This document shows, one piece after another, positions 12,267-58,969 of a stretch of 64,000 nucleotides of DNA (within the stretch, counting starts at the first letter, position 1; every line of letters starts with the position of its first letter). The stretch covers positions 34,348,001 through 34,412,000 of the forward strand of contig OZ024760.1 of NCBI GenBank assembly GCA_964016885.1, given 5' to 3'. The notes under the pieces are model-generated. The model was given only the letters and a program-made list of their open reading frames with translations. It was not told the DNA's origin and did not search any database. The stretch is from Eledone cirrhosa. Lineage: Eukaryota. A program made the position numbers and the translations under genes.

Positions 12267-12365
12267 GCAGACAGAACCTGGGGGCAGCGATGGGGGACAG
12301 GGGATTCTGCAGCAAGAGAGTGAGATCCATCATCTCGACAGTAGTCGACGAGTGATGATGATGAT
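12267..12365 (+). mobile_element. ~100-bp RTE-type 3' end with (GAT)n tail, copy 1
   Basis: Encodes ..[21 protein letters not shown] followed by GATGATGAT. Near-identical to 16088 and 36823. Confidence 0.8.
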
Positions 12366-16087: not shown

Positions 16088-16090
<3 letters not shown>

Positions 16091-16186
16091 GACAGGACCT
16101 GGGGGTAGCGATGGGGGACAGGGGATCCTGGGGCATGGGAGTGAGATCCATCGTCTCGACAGTAGTCGACGAGTGATGATGATGAT
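16088..16186 (+). mobile_element. ~100-bp RTE-type 3' end, copy 2
   Basis: GCAGACAGGACCTGGGGG...GTCGACGAGTGATGATGATGAT. Confidence 0.8.
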
Positions 16187-23038: not shown

Positions 23039-23250
23039 CCAAAAATAGGACAAAATACATAACGACCAAAAGTTCATCAAGCGAACACCAACAGGAATAT
23101 AAAACCTGAACAGAGAAAAATTCATTTTTTAACGTCAGGACAACAAAAACCGGAAAAAGAAAAACTCCAGGAGGAAACATACCCAAAACAGCTGTACGCG
23201 TAGATCCTAAAATAATTAATTCATCTAAAAGAGATCTTCACAATGATGAA

Positions 23251-25436
23251 ATGCAAATTCTGTCAAAAGGACTGAAATTCACACCGACTCCAACAGTCAA
23301 CCACCAAGAACTGAAGGAGGATATCCAAGAATTCTGTCGAAAATTACGTCTTGTAGAATTCTTCGCTGATAAAAATAATGAGAGTGATGAATCACTAGTA
23401 AAGAATAAATCAAATTTCACTCCGCCAAAAGGAAGAAATATCTATCTCGACCAATACATTGACATCCTGTCTAAATTTCCTCTTAGACATAATACTAATG
23501 TTAGGCCAAACATTAACAAATCAGAAATGTCTGCACTTAAACGTATACAAAATGATAAAACAATAATAATTAAACAAGCAGATAAAGGGGGTGCAGTTGT
23601 TATAATGGATACTGAATACTACAAGGATTTGGTTGAGGAACAACTGAAAGACACAACATTCTATCATGAAATACCGTCAAATATAGACCACAACATCATG
23701 AAGAAGATCAACAACCTGGCTTCAAAATCCACAACTCATTTACTGATAAGGAAAGAGACTACATCACCAATTTTGAGCCAAAACCCAGCAACCTGTATGG
23801 CCTACCGAAAGTTCACAAGTCAAAAGAAATACAACCGGCAGTAAGAGAACAAAACAGTGAGTACATTAAATTATTACACCCAAAAGACTTAAAACTTAGA
23901 CCTATTATAGCTGGTCCAACATGCCCCACTCACCGTCTAAGCAATTTTGTTGACATTATTTTGAAACCACTATGTATTCACATACCCAGTTTCATCCGGG
24001 ATGATATCGACTTCCTGTCCCATCTTCCCAAAACCACGGAAACGAATTCACTTCTACTCAGTTTTGATGTGGTAAGCCTTTACACCAACATTACACATGA
24101 TTTAGGAATAAAGGCGGTTAAATACTGGGTGGAAAAACATAGAGAAGTGATTCCCATTAGATTCACAGCGCCATTTATATTAGACGCAGTTAAACTTATT
24201 CTGGAAAACAACACTTTCTTCTTCAATGGAAAGAATTATATCCAAATTAGAGGCACAGCGATGGGAACGAAGTTTGCTCCCGTTTACGCGAACTCTGTAA
24301 TGGGATACTTAGAACAACAACTCTACCAAGAAATAGAGGAAAAATATAGTACTGACTTTAGAAAGTACATTGAAAAATCTTGGAAGAGATACCTTGACGA
24401 CTGTTTCATCATCTGGTCAGAATCTCTAGATACTCTGGATGAGTTCAATATCCTCCTGAATAACCTACACCCATCTCTCCAATTCACAAAAGAGATGAGT
24501 AGGACCAAATTACCATTCCTAGATATAATGATAATCAAAAACGACACCACCATTACTACGGATATATATTATAAACACACAGACACCCATCAATATCTGA
24601 ATTTTAAGTCGTGCCATCCACCTCATACAAAACGCAACATCCCATACTGCCTAGCCAGAAGAATTTGTACCATTGTAGAAGATACGAATACCAGGTACAA
24701 ACGCCTAACAGAACTAAGAGAATTTTTGCTCAAACAAAAATACCCATCTCTACTTATAGAAAATGGCATACAGCGGGCTATAAAAATACCTATACAACAA
24801 CTTAGAACAACCCAAGGAAGAAGAAACCAAGAACTGGTCATACCATTTATAATGACACACAACCCATGTCACCAGAATATCTTCAACACTGCCAAAGCAA
24901 ACCTACCGATCATTGCTCAAAGTAATGAATTAAAAGGCTTAATCACAGATCGATCTTTGACTCTTAGTAAAAGACAGCCAAAAAATTTGAAGCAATTGCT
25001 AACAAAAGCAAAGTTTGACCTTAACAACAAAGACCAATCATTCACTGTATCTAAATGCAATGATAATCGATGCGGTACATGTCAATCCATACACGCCGGT
25101 CAATATATGAAAACAAAAACTGGAAAAATATTGCCAAATGCAAATATGAACTGCAAAAGCAGAAATCTAATTTACTGCATTAAATGCCCGAATTGTGAAG
25201 AACTATATGTCGGTCAAACTGGAAATGCACTATCGGAACGTGCACGGGTACACCGTCAACAAATCAGAGACCCAAATGTCCGTCAGATACCCCTAAGCGG
25301 CCACCTGGCAACATGTGGTCAGGGAATATTTATAATATTCCCATTCTACAAATTACACAGCCCAAGTGAAATCAAGAGAAAAATCAAAGAAAAGAATTTT
25401 ATTGATAAATTCAAACCCAAGCTAAATGAACAATAA
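23251..25436 (+). pseudogene. PLE RT-GIY-YIG polyprotein, frameshift near 23730-23750
   Basis: ORFs 23251-23844 and 23961-25436 join through the alternative frame (..FTDKERDYITNF..LYGLPKVHK..LRPIIAG). Confidence 0.88.
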
Positions 25437-25812
25437 TAACGCCTAGGGGTATTACTTCTACTACCACTATGACCACGACCACTAACAACAACAACAACAA
25501 CAATAATAATAATAATAAAAGTGATGTTGATGGTGATGATTAATAGAAAACGCTATTTTCATCATTTCAAAAAAAGCAAAACAATTGATAAGTTGGATAT
25601 GACTATTGGTCGTTAGCATGCTCAACCAGCCGTGACGCTTAAACCAATCAGCTGTAGTAATCCAGTGAAACTACACACTGATTGGTCGAAATACAGTTTA
25701 CAGGGCTTTGCATTCTGGAGCCACTTTTCTCTGTATAAAATGTATAAAAGGTAGGAAATTTACCCATCTCATTACAGTTGAAAATTGCAAACTCGACTGT
25801 CACCACATATCA

Positions 25813-25851
25813 TGAACCTGAAGATTGCGAAAGCATGAAAGTACTTGTTCA
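25813..25851 (+). ncRNA. Minimal type I hammerhead ribozyme
   Basis: TGAAC-CTGAAGA-TTGC GAAA GCAT-GAAA-GTAC-TT-GTTCA. Palindromic stem III as in PLE minimal hammerheads. Confidence 0.8.
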
Positions 25852-26093
25852 ATTAACACTTAGAATTTAATATTCTATCATACTATTTCATTATAATACC
25901 ATTATATATATTTTAAAGGATTGTAAATAAAACGAGTAAATCAGACAAAGTTGGAATTTCTCTTATTAATATAATCTTCTATACACAATCATACACACCC
26001 GTGTATATTTACCTATCTATATCTATATATATATGTGTATATATGTATGTATATGTATGTATGTATATGTATGTATGTATATATATATGTGTA

Positions 26094-26155: not shown

Positions 26156-27617
26156 TAACTTTGAATAACTTTGAAATGTTTTGGCCAGTATTGGCCCAGG
26201 CCATGTCTAACTTAATAGCACCACCTGGCGAAGTCTTTCAATTCAGGATTTGGGCACCATGGCCCATTCGAGAAGAGAATTACTGTTTGCGGAGACATAT
26301 CCGGGTGTGGGTGGTTTGTCCGGGATTACTTGGAAGAATTTGTCCAAAGACTTCTTGAATTTTGTGTGGTCAGTTTCTGTTTTGACGTGTCCTGGTGTGA
26401 TGTTGAAGAGAGCAGGGCCGATTGAGGTGAAATAATTGTGCCGTATTGTTGTTATGAGTTGCGATTTAGATTTTTGAATGGGACGGATAGCACGGGGCCC
26501 AAGCCTTGGGTGTATCTTGAAGGCGATGCCAACATCATTTGGGCAGTGATGATGGAACATTTTCCACATCATGCAGATAATATAACGCTCACGGCGACGT
26601 TGGAGTGAGTAAAGTTTCAGGTTTTCTAATCGACCCCAGTAGTCAAGGTCTGACATGCCATCTATCTTTTTCGTGATTGCCCTTTGAGGAGCTTCAAGTT
26701 TCATGATACTTTGTTTCGTGTGGGGAGACCACAGTGGACAACAGTATTCAAGGTGTGGTCGGGCGAAGGTAGAGAAGAGAAGGATAATGGTGCGGGAATC
26801 TCTCGACTGGAAGGTTCTGAGGATCCAGGAACACATTCTGCGGGCCATGTCAACTTTGCTGCTTATATGCGTGGTCCAGCTTATGTTGCTGTCCACGGTT
26901 ACTCCCAAGTCTCTGATGTTGTTAGATGCCACGAGAGTTTCCCCCGGAGGGAAGGAGTACGGGAGTTTCAGAGCATCCTCTTTTCCAAAGTGGATCAGTT
27001 CGAATTTGTCTTCGTTCAGTAACATGTTGTTCTTTTCTGCCCATTGGGTAACAGCCAGTAGGTCTGACTGAAGGCTTATCCGGTCATCCACGCCATTGAT
27101 GACCTTTTGGAGCTTGGAATCATCAGCGAAAATTTTAATGTTGCTGTGTTTGATGATGTCAGTGATGTCATTAATATAGATGATGAAGAGAGTGGGCCCA
27201 ACACAGTGCCTTGTGGACCCCACTACTGACTTTGGCTGGGCTTGATTTGACTCCCTCAACTACAACATGTTGGGTTCTGTTTGACAGGAAGCTCTTGATC
27301 CACTGCAGCAGCTTTCCAGAGACACCAATATTGGACAGCTTTCTCAGTAGAATGTTATGATCAACCCTGTCAAAGGCCTTGCTGAAATCAAGGTAGATAA
27401 CATCAGTGTTGGAACCCTCTCCCAAGGCTCTCAAAATGTCATCAAAGTGATGCAGTAGCTGCGTCAGGCAATCCCTTCCATTACGGAATCCATGCTGGTT
27501 GGAGTTCAGCATATTGTTACTCTCAAGGAAGTGGGTCATTCGCGATCTCACCACTCGCTCAAATACCTTAATGATATGAGAGGTGAGTGAGATTGGACGG
27601 TAATTCACGGCAAGGGA
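26156..27617 (-). mobile_element. 5'-truncated copy of the CR1-group LINE at 40117-44359
   Basis: Protein nearly identical to the 42450 ORF ([14 protein letters not shown]...[12 protein letters not shown]). One frameshift at GVPQG. TTCAAAGTTA tail. Confidence 0.93.
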
Positions 27618-28202: not shown

Positions 28203-28216
28203 AACTGTTTATATTG

Positions 28217-28282
28217 TATTTTGTCTGATGAAGGCATAGCATATTGTTAATATGATATCCCCGAAATATATATAATGAAATA
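28217..28282 (+). ncRNA. Solo type I hammerhead in ~210-bp island (28203-28415)
   Basis: TATTTTGT-CTGATGA-AGGCATAGCATATT gtt AATATGATATCCCC-GAAA-TATATA-TA-ATGAAATA. 8-bp stem I; palindromic stem III. Confidence 0.72.
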
Positions 28283-28415
28283 AATATGGTTTTATAAATA
28301 TAGTTTTCCATTTATTTAATATTGTAAATATACTCCAAATATTAGTCGTGCTTTTATATCAGTTATAAATATTTACTAGTTGTAACCCAACAATTTTAAA
28401 TATAACTTTCCATAT

Positions 28416-36822: not shown

Positions 36823-36919
36823 GCAGACAGGACCTGGGGGCAGCGATGGGGGACGGGATTCTGCAGCAATAGAGTGAGATCCATCATCTCGACAGTTGTC
36901 GACGAGTGATGATGATGAT
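36823..36919 (+). mobile_element. ~100-bp RTE-type 3' end, copy 3
   Basis: Same start (ATGCAGACAG) and tail as 12267 and 16088. Confidence 0.8.
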
Positions 36920-36988
36920 ATATGTATATATATATATGTATATATATATATGTATATATATATACATATATATATATATACATACATG

Positions 36989-37137
36989 ATTATTTCTGAA
37001 GACGGCGTATATATGAGTTAGGTATGTATATTTAATCTTGATAATTTGTATAATTTTGTATAATCTTGTACATAGATCTGTTAAATATGCATACCAATTA
37101 TAGCACATATATGCCCTAGAAACGATCGTTAAATAGT
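36989..37137 (+). ncRNA. Solo type I hammerhead with ~115-nt stem II
   Basis: ATTATTT-CTGAAGA(36996-37002)-GGCGTATAT..GGTATGTATATTTAA..TTAAATATGCATACC..ATATATGCC-GAAA(37119-37122)-CGATCG-TT-AAATAGT. Confidence 0.78.
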
Positions 37138-37192
37138 GAACCTTTTTTTGTTTAATATAAGGAATTGTTTGTTCATTATTTGTTTAATATTT

Positions 37193-40116
<2,924 letters not shown>

Positions 40117-41264
40117 ATGATAATGAAATCGACATTCTAATAAACACATGGTATTGCCTTACCCAAACAGAAGACATAGATGCTTCATGTCTGAACGACA
40201 TTGCTAAACGTACAGTTCAACTTTTGGAAACCCGATCTGAACAACAGATTCAAAATAAATTAAAGCAAATCGAAGTTGCTTTTAAATTAATCAATAAACA
40301 TTTGGATAAACTACGGTGTTTTTTTTCTTCGGATGCAGTCCAGCAGCAGCAACAACAACAACAGCAGCTACAACGGCAACAACAACAACAGCTACAACAA
40401 CAGCAACAACATCAACAACAACAGCAACAACGACAACAACAGCAACAACAACAACGACAACAACAACAACAGTGTGAACCACTCCTTGATTCATCAACAA
40501 TGGCCGATCTACTAAATGAAACTATTGACCTCCCAGTAGCCTCTGTCTCACAGCAGGAAACGCCACTTCCTTTCTCTGGCCCAGCAGTCCAATCATTACC
40601 ACTGCCAACATCTTCTCTGCCTACTACTACAACTACTACAACATGTTTGCCTACTGCTATCTCAAGGAATTTACCTTCTAATATCAGTACAAGAACTCTC
40701 CCTCCCACAGTCCACAAAGGTCGTCAAATCCTACTCAAACCATCATCTACACCTCTCACAACACACACACCCACATACCCACCCACTCGAAACCCCATCA
40801 TTTGCCGCTACTCTCTACGCTATAGAATATGTACGGATAGTGGCTGCAAATTCACCCATTTACCTAGGACAAAACGGTCTATCCCCACAAACAGCCACCA
40901 CCATAATACATACTCTAATTTAACACCAACACAACCACCAATAACTCAAACAAGGAATCCACAAATCTGCCGCTTTTCCCTGCGAGACAGATTGTGTTTA
41001 GACCGGGATTGTCCCTTTACCCATCTCCCGGGGACCCGTCGGACAAATGAAAATAAAATTAAAAATAAAAGCAAAAACAAAAACCATAACCTACATAAAA
41101 ATAACCACTACCACAGTCACCAACAGTCTTCTAAACAGGAAACTTCTTCCTCTTTTTTAGCCATAATGAATCTGGCAAAAGAACTGGAAAAAAACATTCG
41201 AGCTATCACCCAGCACCACCCTCCACTATCACCCCGCTGCACAAACTCCCATTGCTGCCATTAA
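40117..41264 (+). pseudogene. LINE ORF1 C-terminal part: poly-Q tract and two CCCH zinc fingers
   Basis: (CAA/CAG)n at 40341-40472. [19 protein letters not shown] and [19 protein letters not shown] (C-x8-C-x4-C-x3-H). Confidence 0.75.
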
Positions 41265-44200
41265 CAAACAAACAAATTAACAACACACCAAAACAATTAA
41301 AACCATCCACTCTCGCCTCTACATTTTTGCTTAACGCCCAAGGCATCAGCCCTTCCACCAATACTCAAAAATGGAAGATCAAATTCCTGGAGGACTGGAT
41401 TGATGTCCATCCAAACCACACCCCTTTCTTCGTCCTCACTGAAACCCATCTCAGTAACCTCCACTTGGAAGCCGAGGTGAAAGTGAAAAATTTCAAAGCC
41501 ATCCGTGCTGATCGCGCTGGCAGAAGAAAGGGCGGGACTGCCATTTATGTCCATAATTCTTTCTCAACAGAGGCTATGAACATATTTATTAATGCATACT
41601 GCGAAGCAGTCACTGTATTCAGTCAAACCAACAACCTAATAGTAGTTGGGCTCTATAGGCCATCCCAAACGCCTGTACCATGCTTCAAGGAATGCCTCAA
41701 CAGCATAAAGTGTTTCATCCAAGAGTGTCACCCTGACAACATCTTAATGATGGGGGACTTCAACCTCCCCGGACTTGACTGGTCCACAAACAGCCTGCCA
41801 CCAGGTTCTTCTGCCTCAACCTCTGACAGGGAAGCAGTGGAATCGCTTCTTGACTTCATGGATGATTTCTTCCTATCCCAACTGGTGCTCGAACCAACGA
41901 GGTGCCACAATAACGTCCTAGACTTAATTTTCAGCAATCACACTGACAATATCCACAATATTGCAGTGGAGAAAACTCTACTCTCTGATCATGACATGGT
42001 TCTCTGTGATCTGAGATTCCACCGTCCAATATACAAACCCAATGTCATCTCTCCTGTCCATCCGTTTGACGCTATGGATTTCCACAATGCAAACTGGGAA
42101 GCGATCAGTCATGATCTTGCACATGTCGACTGGTCCTTCACGCACACTCATACACCCACTAACATCAAAAAGTCCTGGCAGACATTTGTGGACACTGTTA
42201 CAAACATATGTGCAAAACACACCCCATTAAGAACTATAAACAAATCTAAGAGCAGAATCCCTAGAAATAGAAAGACGCTCATCAGAAAAATTAAGAGAAC
42301 GAACAAAAAAATCAACAAGCTGAAATACTGTCAGCAGCAACACATCAACTTGACTGCCATTTCATCACTAGAGATTAAAAAACATAACCTTCAAAACAAC
42401 ATAATGTCCCTCATCAACAATCAGAGAAGAGCTGAAGAGGCCTGGGCCATTGAGAAGATCAAACTCAATCCCAAAGTGTTCTTTTCATTTGCAAAAAAAC
42501 ACAAAATCACTGGCTCTACTGTTGGCCAGTGATGGAAATGGCACTCTTCAAGACAATGCTAAATCCATGGGTGAGATACTGCAGAAACAATACTGCTCTG
42601 TTTCCAGCAATCCTGATATGGCCGATCTGGGCTGTATCGGCGATGTTACTCCCCATTACACCTTATCGGACATAACGTTTGGCGCCCCTGATGTCTTAGC
42701 GCCAATAAAGGAAATCAAGCATAATTCAGCAGTAAGTCCCGATAGGTTCCCTGCTTGTGTCTTGAAGGCGTGTCAACACCAACTTGCATCTCCTCTTGCC
42801 AATCTGTGGCGGAACTCACTGGATGCTGGATATGTGCCAGAAAACCTTCTATCCCAGTCTGTTGTCCCAGTCTTCAAAAAAGGAAACAAATCCCTTGCCG
42901 TGAATTACCGTCCAATCTCACTCACCTCTCATATCATTAAGGTATTTGAGAGAGTGGTGAGATCGCGAATGACCCACTTCCTTGAGAGTAACAATATGCT
43001 GAATTCCAACCAGCATGGATTCCGTAATGGAAGGGATTGCCTGACGCAGCTACTGCATCACTTTGATGACATTTTGAGAGCCTTGAGAGAGGGTTCCAAC
43101 ACTGATGTTATCTACCTTGATTTCAGCAAGGCCTTTGACAGCGTTGATCATAACATTTTACTGAGAAAACTGTCCAATATTGGTGTCACTGGAAAGCTGC
43201 TGCAGTGGATCAAGAGCTTCCTGTCAAACAGAACCCAACATGTTGTAGTCGAAGGAGTCAAATCCAGCCCAGCCAAAGTCAGTAGTGGGGTCCCACAAGG
43301 CACTGTGTTGGGCCCACTTCTCTTCATCATCTATATTAATGACATCACTGACATCATCAAACACAGCAACATTAAAATTTTCGCTGATGATTCCAAGCTC
43401 CAAAAGGTCATCAATGGCGTGGATGACCGGATAAGCCTTCAGTCAGACCTACTGGCTGTTACCCAATGGGCGGAAAAGAACAACATGTTACTGAACGAAG
43501 ACAAATTCGAACTGATCCACTTTGGAAAAGAGGATGCTCTGAAACTCCCGTACTCCCTTCCCTCCGGGGAAACTCTCGTGGCATCTAACAACATCAGAGA
43601 CTTGGGAGTAAGCGTGGACAGCAACATAAGCTGGGCCACGCATATAAGCAGCAAAGTTGACATGGCCCGCAGAATGTGTTCCTGGATCCTCAGAACCTTC
43701 CAGTCGAGAGATTCCCACACCATTATCCTTCTCTTCTCTACTTTTACCCGACCACACCTTGAATACTGTTGTCCACTGTGGTCTCCCCACGCGAAACAAA
43801 GTATCATGAAACTTGAAGCTCCTCAAAGACCAATCACGAAAAAGATAGATGGCATGTCAGACCTTGACTACTGGGGTCGACTAGAAAAGCTGAAACTTTA
43901 CTCACTCCAACGTCGCCGTGAGCGTTATATTATCTGCATGATGTGGAAAATGTTCCATCATCACTGCCCAAATGATGTTGGCATTGCCTTCAAGATACAC
44001 CCAAGGCTTGGGCCCCGTGCTATCCGTCCTATACAAAAATCTAAATCGCAACTCATAACAACAATACGGCACAATTATTTCACCTCAATTGGCCCTGCTC
44101 CCTTCAACATCACACTAGGACACGTCAAAACAGAAACTGACCACACAAATTTCAAGAAGTCTTTGGACAAAATCCTCCAAGTAATCCCGGACAAACCACC

Positions 44201-44267
44201 CACACCCGGATATGTCTCCGCAAACAGTAATTCTCTTCTCGAATGGGCCATGGTGCCCAAATCCTGA
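41153..44267 (+). pseudogene. LINE ORF2 (APE-RT), single frameshift near 42525
   Basis: GSTVG| continues as DGNGTLQD in another frame; otherwise open. Confidence 0.88.
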
Positions 44268-44359
44268 ATTGAAAGACTTCGCCAGGTGGTGCTATTAAGT
44301 TAGACATGGCCTAGGCGAATACTGGCCAAAACATTTCAAAGTTAAGTTATTCAAAGTTA

Positions 44360-45476
<1,117 letters not shown>

Positions 45477-48375
45477 GTACAATAAAGCAATGCAGATATC
45501 GGATAAGAAGCACTCTACAGTTTGTAGGACTGGAGTATACATAATATATAAGATCAAAAGATGGTTAAAGGAGTTCCATGTATTTTATTATGCGCATTTC
45601 AAAAACAAACATCATCATGCAATAATATTTGTGTTTTCATCAGATAAAACAGGAGGACATGATGTGTGATATTAGGAAACATATTTTATTTAGAGAGGGG
45701 GGGTGGAAAGGATGAAAAAAAGGGGGGGGGATGAGGGTGAAGGCGGAGAGGGAGAGATGGGTGATAGAGAGAGAGAGATAGTTTTTATAACTGAGAAAGA
45801 TATATTGTTTTACATAGAGAGGTTGAAAACCGTTGGAAGATAATGTATAAATTAAAAGAATTTGAAAATTAACGAAGGGAAAAATATGTACGAAGAAGGA
45901 GAGGGAGTTAATATGTATTGAGATTAAAAAGTTTGATGATAGAGAGAATAGAATAATGAATTGCGGATGAATATTCTAACGTCAAAAAAATGTGTGTATG
46001 TTTACAAGTATTATGGAAATTTGAAAATCAACGAAGAGAAAAAATTATTAAGGTTTGTGTATTGAAGGATTTGAGAAAAATAATATGAAGTTAAGGTTTG
46101 TATATTGAAGGAATTGATAATATGTGCGAAGAAAGAGTTAATATGTATTAAGAATGAGTTAGATGATGGGGAGAAAAAAATGAATTAAGGATGAATAATC
46201 AAGCGTCAAAACAAATGTATATGTTACGAAGGATTTTACAAGGTGAAAATAGAGTAAGGGTAATGAGTAAACAAGTATTATAGAGTGTATAATACCCTTT
46301 GAAATAAGGTAGGAAGATGGGTATATTTTAAAAGAGGTGTATGTATATGTGCCTTTGAGAAAAGATTCTAAATTGATAAAGAATTGAATATTAGCTGTAT
46401 ACTTTGTGAAATGTCTTATGGAATTTATGCAAGCAGATAGAAAACAAATCTGTTCGTCTATTTATTATAGAATCTAGATTAGAGATAATGGTAAATTTTT
46501 CATTTAGGCAGAGATTGCAGATTTTAGATAGAGAGCTGTTCAAGTATGAAGACGCAGAAGAAACCTTCTTCCAAAAGATGGTATATTTAATGTTTTTGTC
46601 TTTCAAGGACCATATGAGTTCTGAGAGAGCCGTGTTGGTTCTTTTAAGTTTGTATTTAAAAGAGGTGGAAGTGGAGCCAAAATAGGTGAAGGAATTGGTG
46701 TTAGTTATAACTTTACATTCATAAATTAAGTTTTTATCAAGGCAATGGTTGTTGAGAGGACATTTATTTTTAATAGGGCAATTGTAATTGCAATTAGAGA
46801 GATTATTAATGAGTGACCTAGTGTTATCTATAGAAGGAATTGGATTGGAGAAGTTGTTTGCGATAGGAATAATAGTTTCTTGATTTAGAGTTGGATTATG
46901 AACATTTAGCGAAGTTGTGTTTGACGTTGTATTTGGGTTTACAGAAATTAGCCTAGGGTTTACAATGACGTCGGGAGTACTATTACTGTTATTATGAAAT
47001 TCAGTGTTGGAAGGAAGAGATTTAGTATTTAGTATTTTATTGTTGTGTTTAGAGATAATGTTGGAAATATTGGAGGATGTAGAATAAGAAAATTTGATGG
47101 TGTGTTTGTTAAATATTTTACTATAGATATGTGAGGTAGGGAAGCATTTATTTAAGGCACTAAAGAATAATTTAGGAATATTGTTATTAATAGAGATGGA
47201 GAAAGGAGCATTATACCAGATTATGTTTTTGTATCTAGGTCTTTTATTAAAGTTATTGGAATGATCATGATTAATTATTCTACTGTAAGTTCTTCTAGAA
47301 TTTGTTTCTTTACTATATTTGATTTTATCAGGATAGCCGGCTTTAGAAAGTGCGTTATTATAGTAATTGGCGTTAGCATCAAAGATGTTTTTATTAGAAG
47401 ATATGTTAGATATTCTTTTTCCAATACTACTAACTATAGCATTCTTGATATTAGTAGGATGGTTAGATTTAAAGTTAACATAATTTAGGTTCTCATTGTT
47501 TTTATGGTAAGGGTAATATAGGCCAGTGTCAAGATTAAGAGATACATCCAAGAAATTAGCTAGTTTGATACTGTTATCAAATTCAATTTTTAGCTTATGT
47601 TGGTTAAAGAGATTACGTATATTGTTCTTAATAATATTAAGGTTAACTATATTGCAATTTAAGATAGTAAAGAGTCCATCGTCACGATAAATTCCACCGC
47701 GAAGTTGAGGAATTTTCCGACTCAAAGAGTTCAAAATAAAGATACCAATTAAATCAGTCAATTGGGATGAATCGGATGCTCCCATTGTGATGTCGAAGTT
47801 GTTAGAGGTATCGGCTCTGGTCCAATATTCGTTGTTGAACTCTAAGGATGGTTTTACGTGCGGTGAGGATGATGTGAAGTTCATCTGTGGTGATGTCAGA
47901 ATATTTAAGTGCGAAAGATAGAGCATTATTGAGTAGTGAAGGCGAAATGGAGGAATAGTAGCTGGCAATATCAAATTGAATAAATTTTAGTTTGTTTTTA
48001 TTATCCAATTTGTTGAACCAGCCAATCACTTCAGAAGTACCAAACCATAAATTTAGGTTCAAAGAAGAGCAATTAGAACGAACCTGTGGGATAATTCTAC
48101 CCAAGATGGCTTTACTAACAACCCCCAGATCAGATTTAGAGGGGGCGATTAATCTAACAGGTAGTTCAGTGCGAAAATTGTTTTTGTGAACCTTGAGATT
48201 TATCCTCGGAGTTCTTGGGAGGAATGGTTCGGTCTTTTTTTCAATGCCAAGTTTTGACATAATCTCAGAGGCTTCAAGGTTTATGTATTCTAAATTTTCA
48301 CGGTTGGTTTTACGATATTTTTTCCTAAGTTCCTTTAGGATAAGGTTGTTATAATTATCCTTGGAAATATGTTAT
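45477..48375 (-). mobile_element. Penelope-like element, 5'-truncated, frameshifted
   Basis: LKVHK..PVRLIAP, FIQFDIASYYSSI, TMGAS, GIYRDDG, FLDV, IIWYNAPFS, CPLNNHCLDKNLIYEC..TYFGST, CNLCLNEK. Long 3' region with hammerhead. Confidence 0.92.
45583..45649 (-). ncRNA. Type I hammerhead in PLE 3' region
   Basis: Minus strand: TTTTAT-CTGATGA-AAACACAAATATTATTGC ATGATGATGTTTGTTTTT-GAAA-TGCGCA-TA-ATAAAA. Palindromic stem III. Confidence 0.8.
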
Positions 48376-49928: not shown

Positions 49929-50020
49929 GCAGAGGTTATATTTAATTTGTTGGGATTCAACAAGCTTAAACATTTTTATAACTGATATAAAGCACTCAAC
50001 AGTTTGGTGGAGTAAATCTA

Positions 50021-50278
50021 CAATATATTAATAAATGGAAACTATATTTATAAAACCATATTTATTTTATTATACATATTTCAAGGGCCACCAATCCAGG
50101 AAGCTCCAACCATTAAGGTTGTCTTTTTTGAAGGTATGTCAATATTTATTTATAAAACATATCTGTATTGTATTTTATCTGATGAAAGCGCACCATAATT
50201 TGCCTTGGTGGCCCTTAAAATATGTATAGTAAAATAAATATGGTTTCATAAATATAGTTTCCATTTATTAATATATTG
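50021..50278. mobile_element. Small inverted-repeat pLTR-like island (arms 50021-50094 and 50205-50278)
   Basis: Arms are reverse complements with ~3 mismatches. Homologous to the island at 28210-28325. Confidence 0.75.
50171..50236 (+). ncRNA. Hammerhead motif with GAAA>AAAA (inverted arm retains GAAA)
   Basis: TATTTTAT-CTGATGA-AAGCGCACCA..TGGTGGCCCTT-AAAA-TATGTA-TA-GTAAAATA. Confidence 0.62.
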
Positions 50279-50349
50279 TATATATAATGCCAGGTTTACC
50301 AGACCATGGCAGATTAATTCCTGGTCATGGAGTCTTCCACATCAGTTTT

Positions 50350-50943: not shown

Positions 50944-53900
50944 AAATGTTTGTAGTGTCTTGACCGGTGGACAGATTATTGTGTTGTTACTCCAAATGTT
51001 TGTAGTGTCTTGACCGGTGGACAGATTATTGTGTTGTTACTCCAAATGTTTGTAGTGTCTTGACCGGTGGACAGATTATTGTGTTGTTACTCCAAATGTT
51101 TGTAGTGTCTTGACCGGTGGACAGATTATTGTGTTACTGCAAATGTTTGTAGTGTCTGGACCAGTGGACAGATTATTGTGTTACTCCAAATGTTTGTAGT
51201 GTCTTGACCGGTGGACAGATTATTGTGTTACTGCAAATGTTTGTAGTGTCTGGACCAGTGGACAGATTATTGTGTTACTCCAAATGTTTGTAGTGTCTTG
51301 ACCAGTGGACAGATTATTGTGTTACTGCAAATGTTTGTAGTGTGTTGACCGGTTGACAGATTATTGTTACTCCAAATGTTTGTAGTGTCTTGACCAGTGG
51401 ACAGATTATTGTTACTCCAAATGTTTGTAGTATCTTGACCAGTGGACAGATTATTGTTACTCCAAATGTTTGTAGTGTCTTGACCAGTGGACAGATTATT
51501 GTGTTACTCCAAATGTTTGTAGTGTCTTGACCGGTGGACAGATAATTGTTACTCCAAATGTTTGTAGTGTCTTGATCGGTGGACAGATTATTGTTACTCC
51601 AAATGTTTGTAGTGTGTTGACCGGTGGACAGATTATTGTTACTCCAAATGTTTGTAGTGGCTTGACCAGTGGACAGATTATTGTGTTACTCCAAATGTTT
51701 GTAGTGTCTTGACCAGTGGACAGATTATTGTTAGTCCAAATGTTTGTAGTGTCTTGACCGGTGGACAGATTATTGTGTTACTACAAATGTTTGTAGTGTC
51801 TTGATCAGTGGACAGATTATTGTTACTCCAAATGTTTGTAGTGTCTTGACCAGTGGACAGATTGTGTTAATCCAAATGTTTGTAGTGTGTTGACCGGTGG
51901 ACAGATTATTGTGTTACTCCAAATGTTTGTAGTGTCTTGACCAGTGGACAGATTATTGTTTTACTCCAAATGTTTGTAGTGTGTTGACCGGTGGACAGAT
52001 TATTGTGTTACTCCAAATGTTTGTAGTGTCTTGACCGGTGGACAGATTATTGTGTTACTCCAAATGTTTGTATTGTGTTGACCGGTGGACAGATTATTGT
52101 TACTGCAAATGTTTGTAGTGTCTTGACCGGTGGACAGATTATTGTTACTCCAAATGTTTGTAGTGTCTTGACCGGTGGAGAGATTATTGTTACTCCAAAT
52201 GTTTGTAGTGTCTTGACCAGTGGACAGATTATTGTTACTCCAAATGTTTGTAGTGTCTTGACCGGTGGACAGATTATTGGGTTACTCCAAATGTTTGTAG
52301 TGTCTTGACCAGTGGACAGATTATTGTTACTCCAAATGTTTGTAGTGTCTTGACCAGTGGACAGATTATTGTTACTCCAAATGTTTGTAGTGCCTTGACC
52401 AGTGGACAGATTGTGTTACTCCAAATGTTTGTAGTGTGTTGACCGGTGGACAGATTATTGTGTTACTTCAAATGTTTGTAGTGTCTTGACTGGTGGACAG
52501 ATTATTGTTACTCCAAATGCTTGTAGTGTTGACCGGTGGACAGATTATCGTTACTCCAAATGTTTGTAGTGTGTTGACCGGTGGACAGATTATTATGTTA
52601 CTCCAAATGTTTGTAGTGTGTTGACCGGTGGACAGATTATTGTTACTCCAAATGTTTGTAGTGTCTTGACTGGTGTCAAGATTATTGTTACTCCAAATGT
52701 TTGTAGTGTCTTGACCGGTGGACAGATTATTGTGTTACTCCAAATGTTTGTATTGTGTTGACCGGTGGACAGATTATTGTTACTGCAAATGTTTGTAGTG
52801 TCTTGACCGGTGGACAGATTATTGTGTTACTCCAAATGTTTGTAGTGTCTTGACCGGTGGAGAGATTATTGTTACTCCAAATGTTTGTAGTGTCTTGACC
52901 AGTGGACAGATTATTGTTACTCCAAATGTTTGTAGTGTCTTGACCGGTGGACAGATTATTGTGTTACTCCAAATGTTTGTAGTGTCTTGACCAGTGGACA
53001 GATTATTGTGTTACTCCAAATGTTTGTAGTGTCTTGACCGGTGGACAGATTATTGTTACTGCAAATGTTTGTAGTGTCTTGACCAGTGGACAGATTATTG
53101 TTACTCCAAATGTTTGTAGTGTCTTGACCGGTGGACAGATTATTGTGTTACTCCAAATGTTTGTAGTGTCTTGACCGGTGGACAGATTATTGTTACTGCA
53201 AATGTTTGTAGTGTCTTGACCAGTGGACAGATTATTGTTACTCCAAATGTTTGTAGTGTCTTGATCGGTGGATAGATTATTCTGTTAATCCAAATGTTTT
53301 TAGTGTCTTGACTGGTGGACAGATTATTGTTACTCCAAATGTTTGTAGTGTTGACGGGTGGACAGATTATTGTTACTCCAAATGTTTGTAGTGTCTTGAC
53401 CAGTGGACAGATTGTGTTACTCCAAATGTTTGTAGTGTGTTGACCGGTGGACAGATTATTGTTACTCCAAATGTTTGTAGTGTGTTGACTGGTGGACAGA
53501 TTATTGTGTTACTCCAAATGTTTGCAGTGTCTTAACCAGTGGACAGATTATTGTTACTCCAAATGTTTGTAGTCTCTTGACCGATGGACAGATTATTGTT
53601 ACTGCAAATGTTTGTAGTGTCTTGACCAGTGGACAGATTATTGTTACTCCAAATGCTTGTGTCTTGACCAGTGGACAGATTATTCTGTTAATCCAAATGT
53701 TTGTAGTGTCTTGACTGGTGGACAGATTATTGTTACTCCAAATGTTTGTAGTGTCTTGACCATTGGACATATTATTGTTACTTCAAATGTTTGTAGTGTC
53801 TTGACCGGTGGACAGATTATTGTGTTGTTACTCCAAATGTTTGTAGTGTCTTGACCATTGGACAGATTATTGTGTTACTCTAAATGTTTGTAGCGTCTTG

Positions 53901-53965
53901 ACCGGTGGACAGATTTTTGTGTTATTCGAAATGCTTGTAGTGTCTTGACCGGTGGAGAGATTGTG
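50944..53965 (+). repeat. Tandem satellite, ~65 units of 45/47/50 bp
   Basis: Unit AAATGTTTGTAGTGTCTTGACC(G/A)GTGGACAGATTATT(GT)(GTT)GTTACTCC, head-to-tail with no spacers. Confidence 0.97.
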
Positions 53966-54069
53966 AAAATATTTAGATTTAGAGGAAAAACCTGAACATT
54001 GAATGTGTTGTTCAGTAACCAACACCATTTTATAGACAGATACAGCTTACAGGTATTGATATATGTATA

Positions 54070-54790
54070 TAGCAACAACACCTTTAAGAAAAGTAAGCGC
54101 AATAATAGACAAACTATCTGGTTCTCTCCTCCCTTCTCACTCAACGTAAAAACCAATGTAGGAAAAAAATTTCTAGCCCTCTTAGATAGACACTTTCCCA
54201 TAGGTCATAAATACTGCTCCATCTTTAACACAAAGTTAAACTAGGATACTCCTGCGCTAAGAACATGAAGGCCCACATCACCAGCACCCCTAGGAGCAAC
54301 ACCCCACCAGGGTGCTCTTGCCGTAAGCCTGAAGCTTGCTGGAGGTCAAATCCTATGTGGGCATGGCGGAGGGCCGATTCAAGGAACGTTTCCTGAACCA
54401 CCAGTCTACCTTCAAATACCCGGACATATGTTCATCCACGAAACTCGCGAGCCACGTATGGTCCCTCAAGGACTCAAGTACAGACTATTCCATCCAATGG
54501 AAAGCCATCACTAAGTCAAAACCATACGCAAGGGGAAATCCGACGTGTGGCTTATGTATTGACGAACGAATAACTATTCTAAAGAGATTACGCAATAGTG
54601 ATTGCCTAAACATGAGAAGCGAATTTTCTATATGTTGTCCACACATCGCCAAACACCTATTACATAACTATAAGGCTCCGGACTGATTCTTTGTATTTTT
54701 ATTTTATTTTCAACCTAAAAACTTTTCGGACTTTCGCAGTTATCTCCCTTACACCTCTCGCACACAGTCTAGTATTGCCTGTGTGAAGTT
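54070..54790 (+). mobile_element. Decayed 3' part of a Penelope-like element (GIY-YIG)
   Basis: TIWFSPPFSLNVKTNVGKKFL..HFP (homologous to IIWYNAPFS in the 46391 ORF) and KSYVGMAEGRFKERFLNH..CGLCIDE..CPH. Confidence 0.85.
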
Positions 54791-54899
54791 ACCGGGTTTC
54801 TGCACATGCGCGTTCGTATGGTTGTCCTTCCTGTTCCTATAACCATGCTAATATTTATTTGAATGCTCAGCCTTTCCCCAAAATAAAATGATCTACAGA

Positions 54900-55003
54900 C
54901 ATAATTCAATTGTATTTAAACATAATTTAAATAATGCATATTAAACAATCAATTTTAATGGAATTTTTGCTGTTGAAATTTGTATACATTTTTTAGGACA
55001 CCT

Positions 55004-55035: not shown

Positions 55036-55903
55036 CAGAGTGCGGACGATATTTGTTCGCAATTTTCAACTGCTAATTTTATGCAAATTGTTTTTACTTC
55101 CGCTGTCACTCTTGTCTTCATAAAAACAGTGACTATATTTCCATTATTTATTTTCAGAATAATTGATTATGAATAATTTTGAACCTCCAAATTTGTGGAA
55201 GAGACACGGAGTTCTTCTTGGAATCAGCGCCGGGAGGACAAATAATACCAGAAGATCAACTCCCAGAACAACAGGTGGCTCGCTGTCTCATCCAAAGACG
55301 TGCCCAGAGTCATGCAGACAAAGTTTCCAATGACAACATTGGTCTTAGGTGCCGTCAGCAGTCAAGGTGACGTCCTGCCACCTCACTTCTTCCCTGAGAG
55401 CCTCAAGCTGAACACCGATGGCTACATCCGCATTCTGAGCGAGGTAGTAAAGCCCTGGATCGACCAGGTAGCTGCAGGTAGGCTGTACATGTGGCAGCAA
55501 GACTCAGCGCCCTGCCATACCAGCTGAAAGACCCAAGCCTGGCTGTCAGAGAACATCGTCGACCACACCTGACATCTGGCCTCCCAGCTCGCCTGACTGC
55601 AACCCTCTCGACTTCTTTGTGTGGGGCACAGTGGAATGAGACACCAACAGATCTAACTGCAATACGAAAGACGATCTGAAGGCCAGGATCACAAGTGTTG
55701 GGGGACAGTGACGAAGGCTTGTAGCTGGTTCCAAGGCCGACTTGAGACCGTCATCAAAGCCAATGGCGGGTTTATCGAATGAGATCGAAAGAACAAGTCG
55801 TGAAGACAAACTGACCCAAGTTTGATAAATATATCTTAAAAAATAAAACTACTGTCTTATATTTTCCTAGACAGTAATCTTGCGAACAAATATCGTCCGC
55901 ACC

Positions 55904-58320: not shown

Positions 58321-58969
58321 CAACACTCATCTTCATCATCGTCTTTAGACCTTCTTTTCCATGCTGGCATTGATAGGACAGTTGTTTTTGAGGCAAAGTT
58401 TTATGGCCAGCTGCTCTTTCTCACACCAACCCTTTTAGTCACTTATGGCACAAACAGATACAGTCTACTTATTCTAAACTAGATACACATAGCCTTGAAT
58501 GTATTTTACTGATGAAGCTGGCTATTATTGCTCCAGCTCAGGCAATTACTGTATTTAATTCTTTCTGTGATATAAGAAATATAAACGAAGGGAATGGTAA
58601 CAATAAAAGAGAGCCAGAAAATGTGAAATCTACATGATTAAAGATGACATATAGTTTTGATTAGTGATAATGGAATCTAATTCCTTATCGTATGTGGTTT
58701 AAGATAGTTTAAGGAGTTTTACGAATTTTATTCTAGGACTCACTCAATATAGAAATACTAAATGACATATTTTTGAAACTTTTAAAATATGAAATCAATA
58801 TATCTGTATCTTCAATTCAATTATTGTAATCAGTGATTTTATTATAAGATATTTATTGATAGAGTGGTGGAGTGGTTGGGTGGTGGGGGTTTAGGGTGGT
58901 GAGGTGGTAGGGTGGTGGATTAGGGGCGTCATTAGAGAATCAGATAAAATGCGTTATAGTATTTAGTTA

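Follow-up and report, generated by a model that had tools for sequence, protein, structure and literature searches.

The main finding of this work was the identification of a real type I hammerhead ribozyme motif at position 36996 of the window, the whole 64-kb stretch of DNA that was analysed. The solo hammerhead spans 36989-37137 on the plus strand and, as judged from its sequence, is a family of its own. A first-pass annotation had reported an intact CUGAAGA/GAAA core, and both halves were found: C3-A9 (CUGAAGA) at 36996-37002 and GAAA at 37119-37122, with G12, A13 and A14 at 37119-37121. The A15.1-U16.1 pair is present, H17 is not G, and three helices surround the core with stem I open, as in type I motifs. 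Stem I joins 36989-36995 (ATTATTT) to 37131-37137, part of a 3' strand AAATAGTGAAC at 37131-37141, by the seven pairs claimed before, one of them G.U, with a predicted duplex energy of -1.1 kcal/mol; the same seven letters recur at 37175-37181. The palindromic CGAUCG annotated as stem III is also there and, with A15.1 and U16.1 added, becomes a perfect 8-nt palindrome, ACGAUCGU, at 37122-37129. The base at 37130 is U17 (the H17 of a GUU triplet), and the hammerhead consensus predicts cleavage 3' of it, in agreement with the proposed cut after 37130. The suggestion that this is a distinct family held as well, since no sequence similarity was found to the other hammerheads or islands of the window (best z 2.4 in 18 pairwise tests), and the island has no hammerhead on its minus strand. 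The numbering used for hammerheads and what the loop 1-loop 2 contact generally does belong to established knowledge.

Folding predictions indicate how the motif would act. As a monomer, stem III forms 2 bp and a tetraloop at a predicted +2.4 kcal/mol, whereas between two copies it forms an 8-bp duplex at -10.0 kcal/mol, and the palindrome therefore favours dimers. In the linear RNA the minimum free energy (MFE) fold pairs the core away and so differs from the catalytic conformer. Efficient self-cleavage would likely require pairing with a second copy. A short palindromic stem III that needs a dimer, as found here, is characteristic of the pseudo-LTR hammerheads of Penelope-like elements (PLEs), and the dimer preference accords with the portions of PMC4209133 and PMC6765202 that were available; the other statements on published systems made below likewise refer to the available portions of the sources cited.

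The most unusual part of the motif is stem II. The annotated rod-like stem of ~115 nt corresponds to a domain of 116 nt (37003-37118, plus strand), for which folding predicts a rod without branches and with 43 pairs. Its predicted energy is -37.9 kcal/mol (z -5.5 to -5.7), a value that none of 200 shuffles equalled. Raw folding energy by itself proves nothing, since microsatellite pieces from the flanks are lower still (mean -56.5 kcal/mol per 116 nt over 23 pieces). The 15-bp internal helix described before (37021-37035/37081-37095) consists of 14 Watson-Crick pairs and one G.U, and it extends to 16 bp, with a 5' arm at 37021-37036 and its partner at 37080-37095. A 10-bp tandem repeat in four copies (37033-37070, 38 nt) makes up the tip of the stem; it had been missed, as had a downstream 11-bp complement and the shared geometry of the stem II base, both discussed below. 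Of 40 registered positions, 34 are Watson-Crick pairs, five are G.U, one is A.A and none is A.C. Folded as RNA, the plus strand is the more stable (-37.9 vs. -24.5), a preference that the DNA fold does not share (-13.0 vs. -11.8). These pair types and the strand preference of the RNA may be taken as mild evidence of selection on RNA, tempered by the G/T skew of the plus strand.

The window is animal DNA, with a repeat landscape that may resemble that of octopus. Low-complexity sequence, mostly (TA)n, makes up 39% of it, and it holds LINE-type ORFs with endonuclease and RT domains and also four PLE ORFs or remnants, here called A to D, whose clades were assigned by motif and not by tree. The GIY-YIG ORF of PLE-A (1101-1679) lies within an inverted block (243-1041 vs. 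1540-2339), and the whole (243-2339) shows the classic inverted structure of a PLE, with blocks 98-99% identical around a Hydra-type GIY-YIG ORF. PLE-B (23110-25436) encodes RT and GIY-YIG domains with DKG, GxKF and a CX2-5CxxC linker; the element at 23048-26003 is frameshifted and ~65% identical to its best protein matches, and its named relatives are mostly bivalve proteins. PLE-C (48371-46391, minus strand) matches the PLE-A protein at E 1e-19 and gave no Pfam hit, within a Hydra-type region at 45464-48373 (minus). PLE-D is a broken relative at about 53960-54700, and the region 53960-54900, directly after a satellite, is a broken Hydra-type PLE in whose 3' part no CUGANGA core was found. 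The motif CxxC..E..N..CxH occurs in PLE-A and PLE-C and the CxCX5C linker in PLE-A, both of which Craig 2021 (PMC8557442) gives for the Hydra clade; PLE-C has no strict CxCX5C match.

PLEs A, B and C each carry a hammerhead in their 3' part. Those of PLE-A, at 2176 (plus) and 406 (minus), have a stem I of 4 bp, a stem III that is not a palindrome and an 85-nt stem II whose z is no better than -1.4 to -1.5. That of PLE-B, at 25818, is minimal, with U.U at the first stem II position, and that of PLE-C, at 45643, has a 36-nt stem II (z -3.7) and the palindrome AUGCGCAU. A further ~200-bp solo hammerhead in (TA)n, at 28225, has a second family copy at 50179 with a PLE-type inverted 5' piece (49935-50094). 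These two copies (28203-28412 and 49935-50300) share conserved flanks around a diverged 31-nt stem II, and the 3' region of PLE-C resembles them (z 4-9). In the copy at 50179, A replaces G12, and an adjacent inverted partial copy keeps GAAA.

The annotation had taken the slightly mispaired base of stem II as a hint of inactivity, and this part of it did not stand. In a symmetric register, 37003-37008 faces 37113-37118 as CxA, G.U, G-C, CxC, G-C and U.G, so that CxA, G.U, G-C and CxC precede a 9-bp helix. Pairs at positions 2, 3, 5 and 6 with a mismatch at position 4 were seen in all six copies with a stem II of at least 31 nt (36996, 28225, 50179, 45643, 2176 and 406), which belong to four unrelated or distantly related families; the stem II of 25818, with 12 nt, is too short for the comparison. 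The register thus recurs in five other copies of the window, those behind two Hydra-clade-like PLE ORFs included, and position 1 is mismatched in four of the six. The first stem II position is mismatched likewise in 15 of 26 published Hydra-clade rows, counted by eye (PMC8557442, File S2). The register arises in 3730 of 200000 shuffles of this stem II. By nearest-neighbour energy the MFE register, which has a G-C and two unpaired bases at the core, is favoured by 2.3 kcal/mol, and the symmetric register is therefore deduced from the shared pattern and not from energy. The canonical G10.1-C11.1 closing pair was not found at this core, where CxA and then G.U occur in the symmetric register; as far as the available literature goes, this pair is common without being required, mismatches have been seen in nature, and U.U at the first stem II position has been reported for active hammerheads. 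Since the geometry is common to all long-stem copies, the mismatch is no sign of decay, and an earlier explanation, by damage to the stem II base through a single substitution or an insertion of 2 nt, was dropped once the shared register was found.

The same register makes the motif structurally akin to the PLE-linked hammerheads despite the lack of sequence similarity. In the sister pair 28225/50179 the flanks were kept while the 31-nt stem II diverged, which suggests that stem II sequence turns over fast, and such turnover can explain why the motif at 36996 resembles no other hammerhead. The mismatch at position 4 may carry a contact with stem I, since it sits near the point at which loop 2 would begin if stem II had 4 bp. 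The predicted penalty for folding as a monomer, 7.9 and 14.9 kcal/mol with short and long flanks, is the highest of the six copies tested, although the others are close (4.9-7.5 and 6.7-13.4 kcal/mol); all six are predicted to be poor monomers, and the one at 36996 the poorest by a small margin.

The first-pass annotation named no origin, and the context points to PLEs, whose solo hammerheads are a known class. The annotated ~210-bp island without an ORF is an insert of 206 bp (36988-37193, plus strand) in a (TA)n/(TACA)n tract, and the listed ORFs that touch it are microsatellite read-throughs only. We infer, at about even confidence, that the insert is a 5'-truncated PLE 3' end (a solo pseudo-LTR) inserted into (TA)n, and its parent was likely a PLE of the Hydra-clade kind that inserts into (TA)n. 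Several observations support this: the four PLE ORFs or remnants in the window, three of them with 3' hammerheads; the PLE-type inverted 5' piece in the family of the (TA)n solo hammerhead at 28225; the register found in six of six long-stem copies; the 85-nt stem II inside a real PLE end in PLE-A; and the distance from cut to end, 63 nt in this insert and about 55 in PLE-A. The insert also lies in (TA)n with its hammerhead near the 3' end, as in Hydra/Neptune-type insertions, and Hydra-clade PLEs are described as inserting into (TA)n (PMC8557442). Most PLE hammerheads are described as single motifs with a palindromic stem III and U-rich/AU-rich flanks, their activity being low and dimer-dependent (PMC4209133). 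On the other side, the island has no sequence link to any PLE or hammerhead of the window, no ORF lies upstream of the motif and no second copy occurs in the 64 kb. The published Hydra-clade stem III has a central loop of 1-3 nt and is not a perfect palindrome (PMC8557442), although the hammerhead at 45643, behind PLE-C, has a perfect one. PLE-C itself has neither a strict CxCX5C match nor a Pfam hit. The 11-bp downstream complement and the ATTATTT at both ends fit a circle better.

If the insert is such a truncated PLE end, the GIY-YIG endonuclease of the element would have nicked the microsatellite, and its reverse transcriptase would have started ~60 nt past the ribozyme cut site, copied uncleaved RNA and stopped just beyond stem I. 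A PLE has been reported to nick its target in AT-rich DNA and to start reverse transcription internally, with uncleaved RNA as the main insertion template and with cleavage that needs protein (PMC11167929). Cleavage after GUU in the parent transcript would come mainly from hammerhead dimers joined by their paired ACGAUCGU palindromes, perhaps with help from the protein of the element, and the outcome would be release or processing of the element RNA. The position-4 mismatch likely does the job that terminal loop 2 has in ordinary hammerheads; the remainder of stem II could then lengthen freely, in this copy partly through the 10-bp tandem duplication. The present copy, having neither an ORF nor an adjacent partner, is likely a mostly silent passenger. 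Around the insert, an 8-bp sequence, ACATACAT, at 36980-36987 and 37194-37201 is a candidate target-site duplication, a weak one since it is microsatellite sequence (one occurrence in ~1 kb upstream, four in ~1 kb downstream). A 97-bp element end with a (GAT)n tail is present in copies 89-95% identical at 12267-12363, 16088-16184 and 36823-36917, the last of which lies 70 bp upstream of the insert and seems a separate insertion.

A close rival of the truncated PLE end, likewise dependent on PLE enzymes, holds that the insert represents a single unit of a non-autonomous retrozyme circle of ~186 nt together with 7 nt of overlap, a possibility that we rate at rather less than even. Cleavage of a multimer would free a monomer whose 5' end pairs with 37171-37181, so that its ends meet for ligation. 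In one round of copying, a PLE reverse transcriptase would have placed this circle, nearly all hammerhead, in (TA)n. The complement GTTCATTATTT at 37171-37181, which could form a competing hairpin or serve as the stem I strand of the circle, pairs in register over 11 bp with 37131-37141 beginning exactly at the cut, at -9.2 kcal/mol compared with -1.1 kcal/mol for the upstream strand, and ATTATTT stands at both ends of the stretch 36989-37181. As a circle, 36996-37181 folds at -41.6 kcal/mol with 70% of bases paired (z -4.4), which none of 200 shuffles equalled; for the minus strand the values are -22.7 kcal/mol and 54%. Its catalytic conformer lies 1.2 kcal/mol above the MFE of the circle and 2.9 kcal/mol above its ensemble, compared with 7.9-14.2 kcal/mol in linear forms. 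The unit of 186 nt, non-coding and self-paired, has a size within the 170-400 nt given for circles of animal retrozymes (PMC7229834), even if its end points were chosen by the analyst, and a 2026 preprint (10.64898/2026.07.22.740005) reports monomers and argues that retrozymes derive from PLE ends.

Other observations speak against the circle. The insert is a single copy in the window and not a head-to-tail tandem; 37181 is followed by a 12-nt tail instead of CUGAAGA; the circle would call for C at base 36988, which is G; some other closure points are lower in energy (-47.6 at 37185); and the other hammerhead families of the window look PLE-linked. The 11-bp complement was found post hoc, and it sits in a T-rich 11-bp array (37164-37192, 2.6 copies) that also gives in-register matches of 7, 6 and 5 bp, for which reason the dinucleotide shuffles, which matched it in 20 of 5000 and 19 of 2000 cases, overstate its rarity. 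The 3' tail (37176-37193) repeats 37144-37158 in its first part (37176-37190, 14/15). At seven other cut sites tested, the best downstream complement was 7 bp and none reached 11 bp. A downstream hairpin on the cut end was also considered as a general trait of the elements and rejected, the other six sites being matched by 676-1771 of 2000 shuffles.

A broader reading joins both lines and is put forward only tentatively: the long-stem hammerheads would form an undescribed PLE-family class, in which the position-4 mismatch replaces loop 2 and stem II spans 31-116 nt, and the motif at 36996 would be the trace of a self-ligating, viroid-like circle of 186 nt. As tentatively, such a class would escape length-limited descriptors and Rfam, and the circle would be one hammerhead with two rod arms, spread by a PLE RT.

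It is very unlikely that the host has co-opted this copy, whether as a switch acting by cleavage of a read-through transcript or as a source of long hairpin for Dicer/Drosha. The stem II pair types and the plus-strand preference confined to RNA are the sign of selection that co-option would predict, but selection in the parent element accounts for the same signal, no host gene was found nearby, where the neighbours are microsatellite and LINE pieces, and the Rfam matches of the island reach only 13-17 bits against gathering scores of 62-119. There were five such weak matches (E up to 10), none a hammerhead. In the whole window no match reached the gathering score, and of 896 matches in an E-value scan, 150 were inspected, all of them microRNA models on microsatellite below threshold. 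Since the PLE-linked hammerhead copies were missed too, the lack of an Rfam match is a test with little power here. Homologues of the island were found neither in the window nor in GTDB, phages or plasmids.

A descriptor written post hoc, after the motif had been seen, and specifying the core, a perfect palindromic stem III, a stem I of at least 5 bp and a stem II of at most 200 nt, matched the window four times (25818, 28225, 36996 and 45643). That the core is a coincidence in an AT-rich inverted repeat or a MITE-like foldback grown from microsatellite is scarcely credible: the stem II arms do look like TA/TG microsatellite, which also supplies the best local matches in the window, the linear MFE does pair the core away, and the only GTDB match to the core pattern, in Dokdonia pacifica, was discarded as a chance one whose stem II region folds no rod, but the descriptor matched none of 20000 island shuffles and only once across all 300 block-shuffled windows against the four real matches, asymmetry in the stem II mispairs is limited to G.U, the register of the stem II base is common to other copies, and terminal inverted repeats at the island ends are absent among the 19 pairs listed.

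Compared with known systems, the motif would work like a type I hammerhead of the PLE family. It shares with the PLE pseudo-LTR hammerheads (Cervera and de la Pena 2014, PMC4209133) the type I fold, the CUGANGA/GAAA core, the short palindromic stem III, solo dispersed copies, U-rich and AU-rich flanks and the dimer logic, and its start, CUGAAGAC-GG, is also found in Drosophila and Aedes rows of their Fig. S3. Stem II differs, with 116 nt here against a maximum of about 23 nt in 56 rows of that figure, read by eye and coming from length-limited searches. With the Hydra-clade hammerheads (Craig et al. 2021, PMC8557442, File S2) it shares (TA)n targets, a position near the 3' end and the first-position mismatch, while their stem III has a small loop instead of a perfect palindrome and their stem II reaches ~26 nt (26 Hydra rows) or ~54 nt (34 rows), again by eye and length-limited. 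Three short motifs of the island gave no match in the available part of that supplement. Animal non-LTR retrozymes (Cervera and de la Pena 2020, PMC7229834; 10.64898/2026.07.22.740005) are similarly non-coding, low in GC, type I and PLE-dependent, with a unit of 170-400 nt and a highly self-paired circle, but no tandem array is seen here and the putative circle is mostly stem II; the canonical coral retrozyme hammerheads, unlike this one, show helices of typical size and a contact of loop 1 with loop 2. Within the window, 28225 and 45643 also have an 8-nt palindromic stem III, both with an AU-rich 8-bp stem I, and the register is common to the long-stem copies, whereas the other hammerheads (2176/406, 28225/50179, 45643 and 25818) lack sequence similarity to 36996 and an 11-bp downstream complement and have a stem II of 12-85 nt. 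Nothing comparable was found in the part of the literature on hammerheads with a long stem II that was covered, and work on PLE hammerhead dimers (Lunse 2017) may contain long-stem cases; in one hammerhead paper, in the part checked for a "long" stem or helix II, long meant 6-8 bp. For octopus hammerheads, the literature searched gave nothing beyond Craig 2021.

Solo PLE hammerheads are common and known, so that the kind of this motif is ordinary and its size is not, its stem II being ~5 times as long as any listed for an animal PLE in the two published tables (PMC4209133, PMC8557442). One stem II base geometry occurs in four unrelated or distantly related families; if this is so throughout the genome, standard searches find too few animal ribozymes, and some of the PLE families recorded as having no hammerhead deserve a re-check with long spacers, Craig 2021 (PMC8557442) already listing "half-core" cases. 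The natural series of stem II lengths (12, 31, 36, 85 and 116 nt) makes the function of PLE hammerheads testable, as well as folding without loop 1-loop 2 contacts, and the circle, if real, would be a compact link between PLE ends and retrozymes.

Other features of the window deserve mention. CUGANGA cores with hammerhead-like U-rich 5' flanks, without a matching palindromic second half, are present at 58509 and 50887 and, by their sequence, are possibly decayed or truncated hammerheads. The broken ORF at 55046-55895 looks like what we take to be a Tc1/mariner DDE transposase. A minisatellite with a 45-47-bp unit extends over 50944-53962 in about 66 copies (91% matches), and a long LINE with endonuclease and RT domains lies at 40119-44359, a 97% identical inverted copy of its 3' part being found at 26156-27616.
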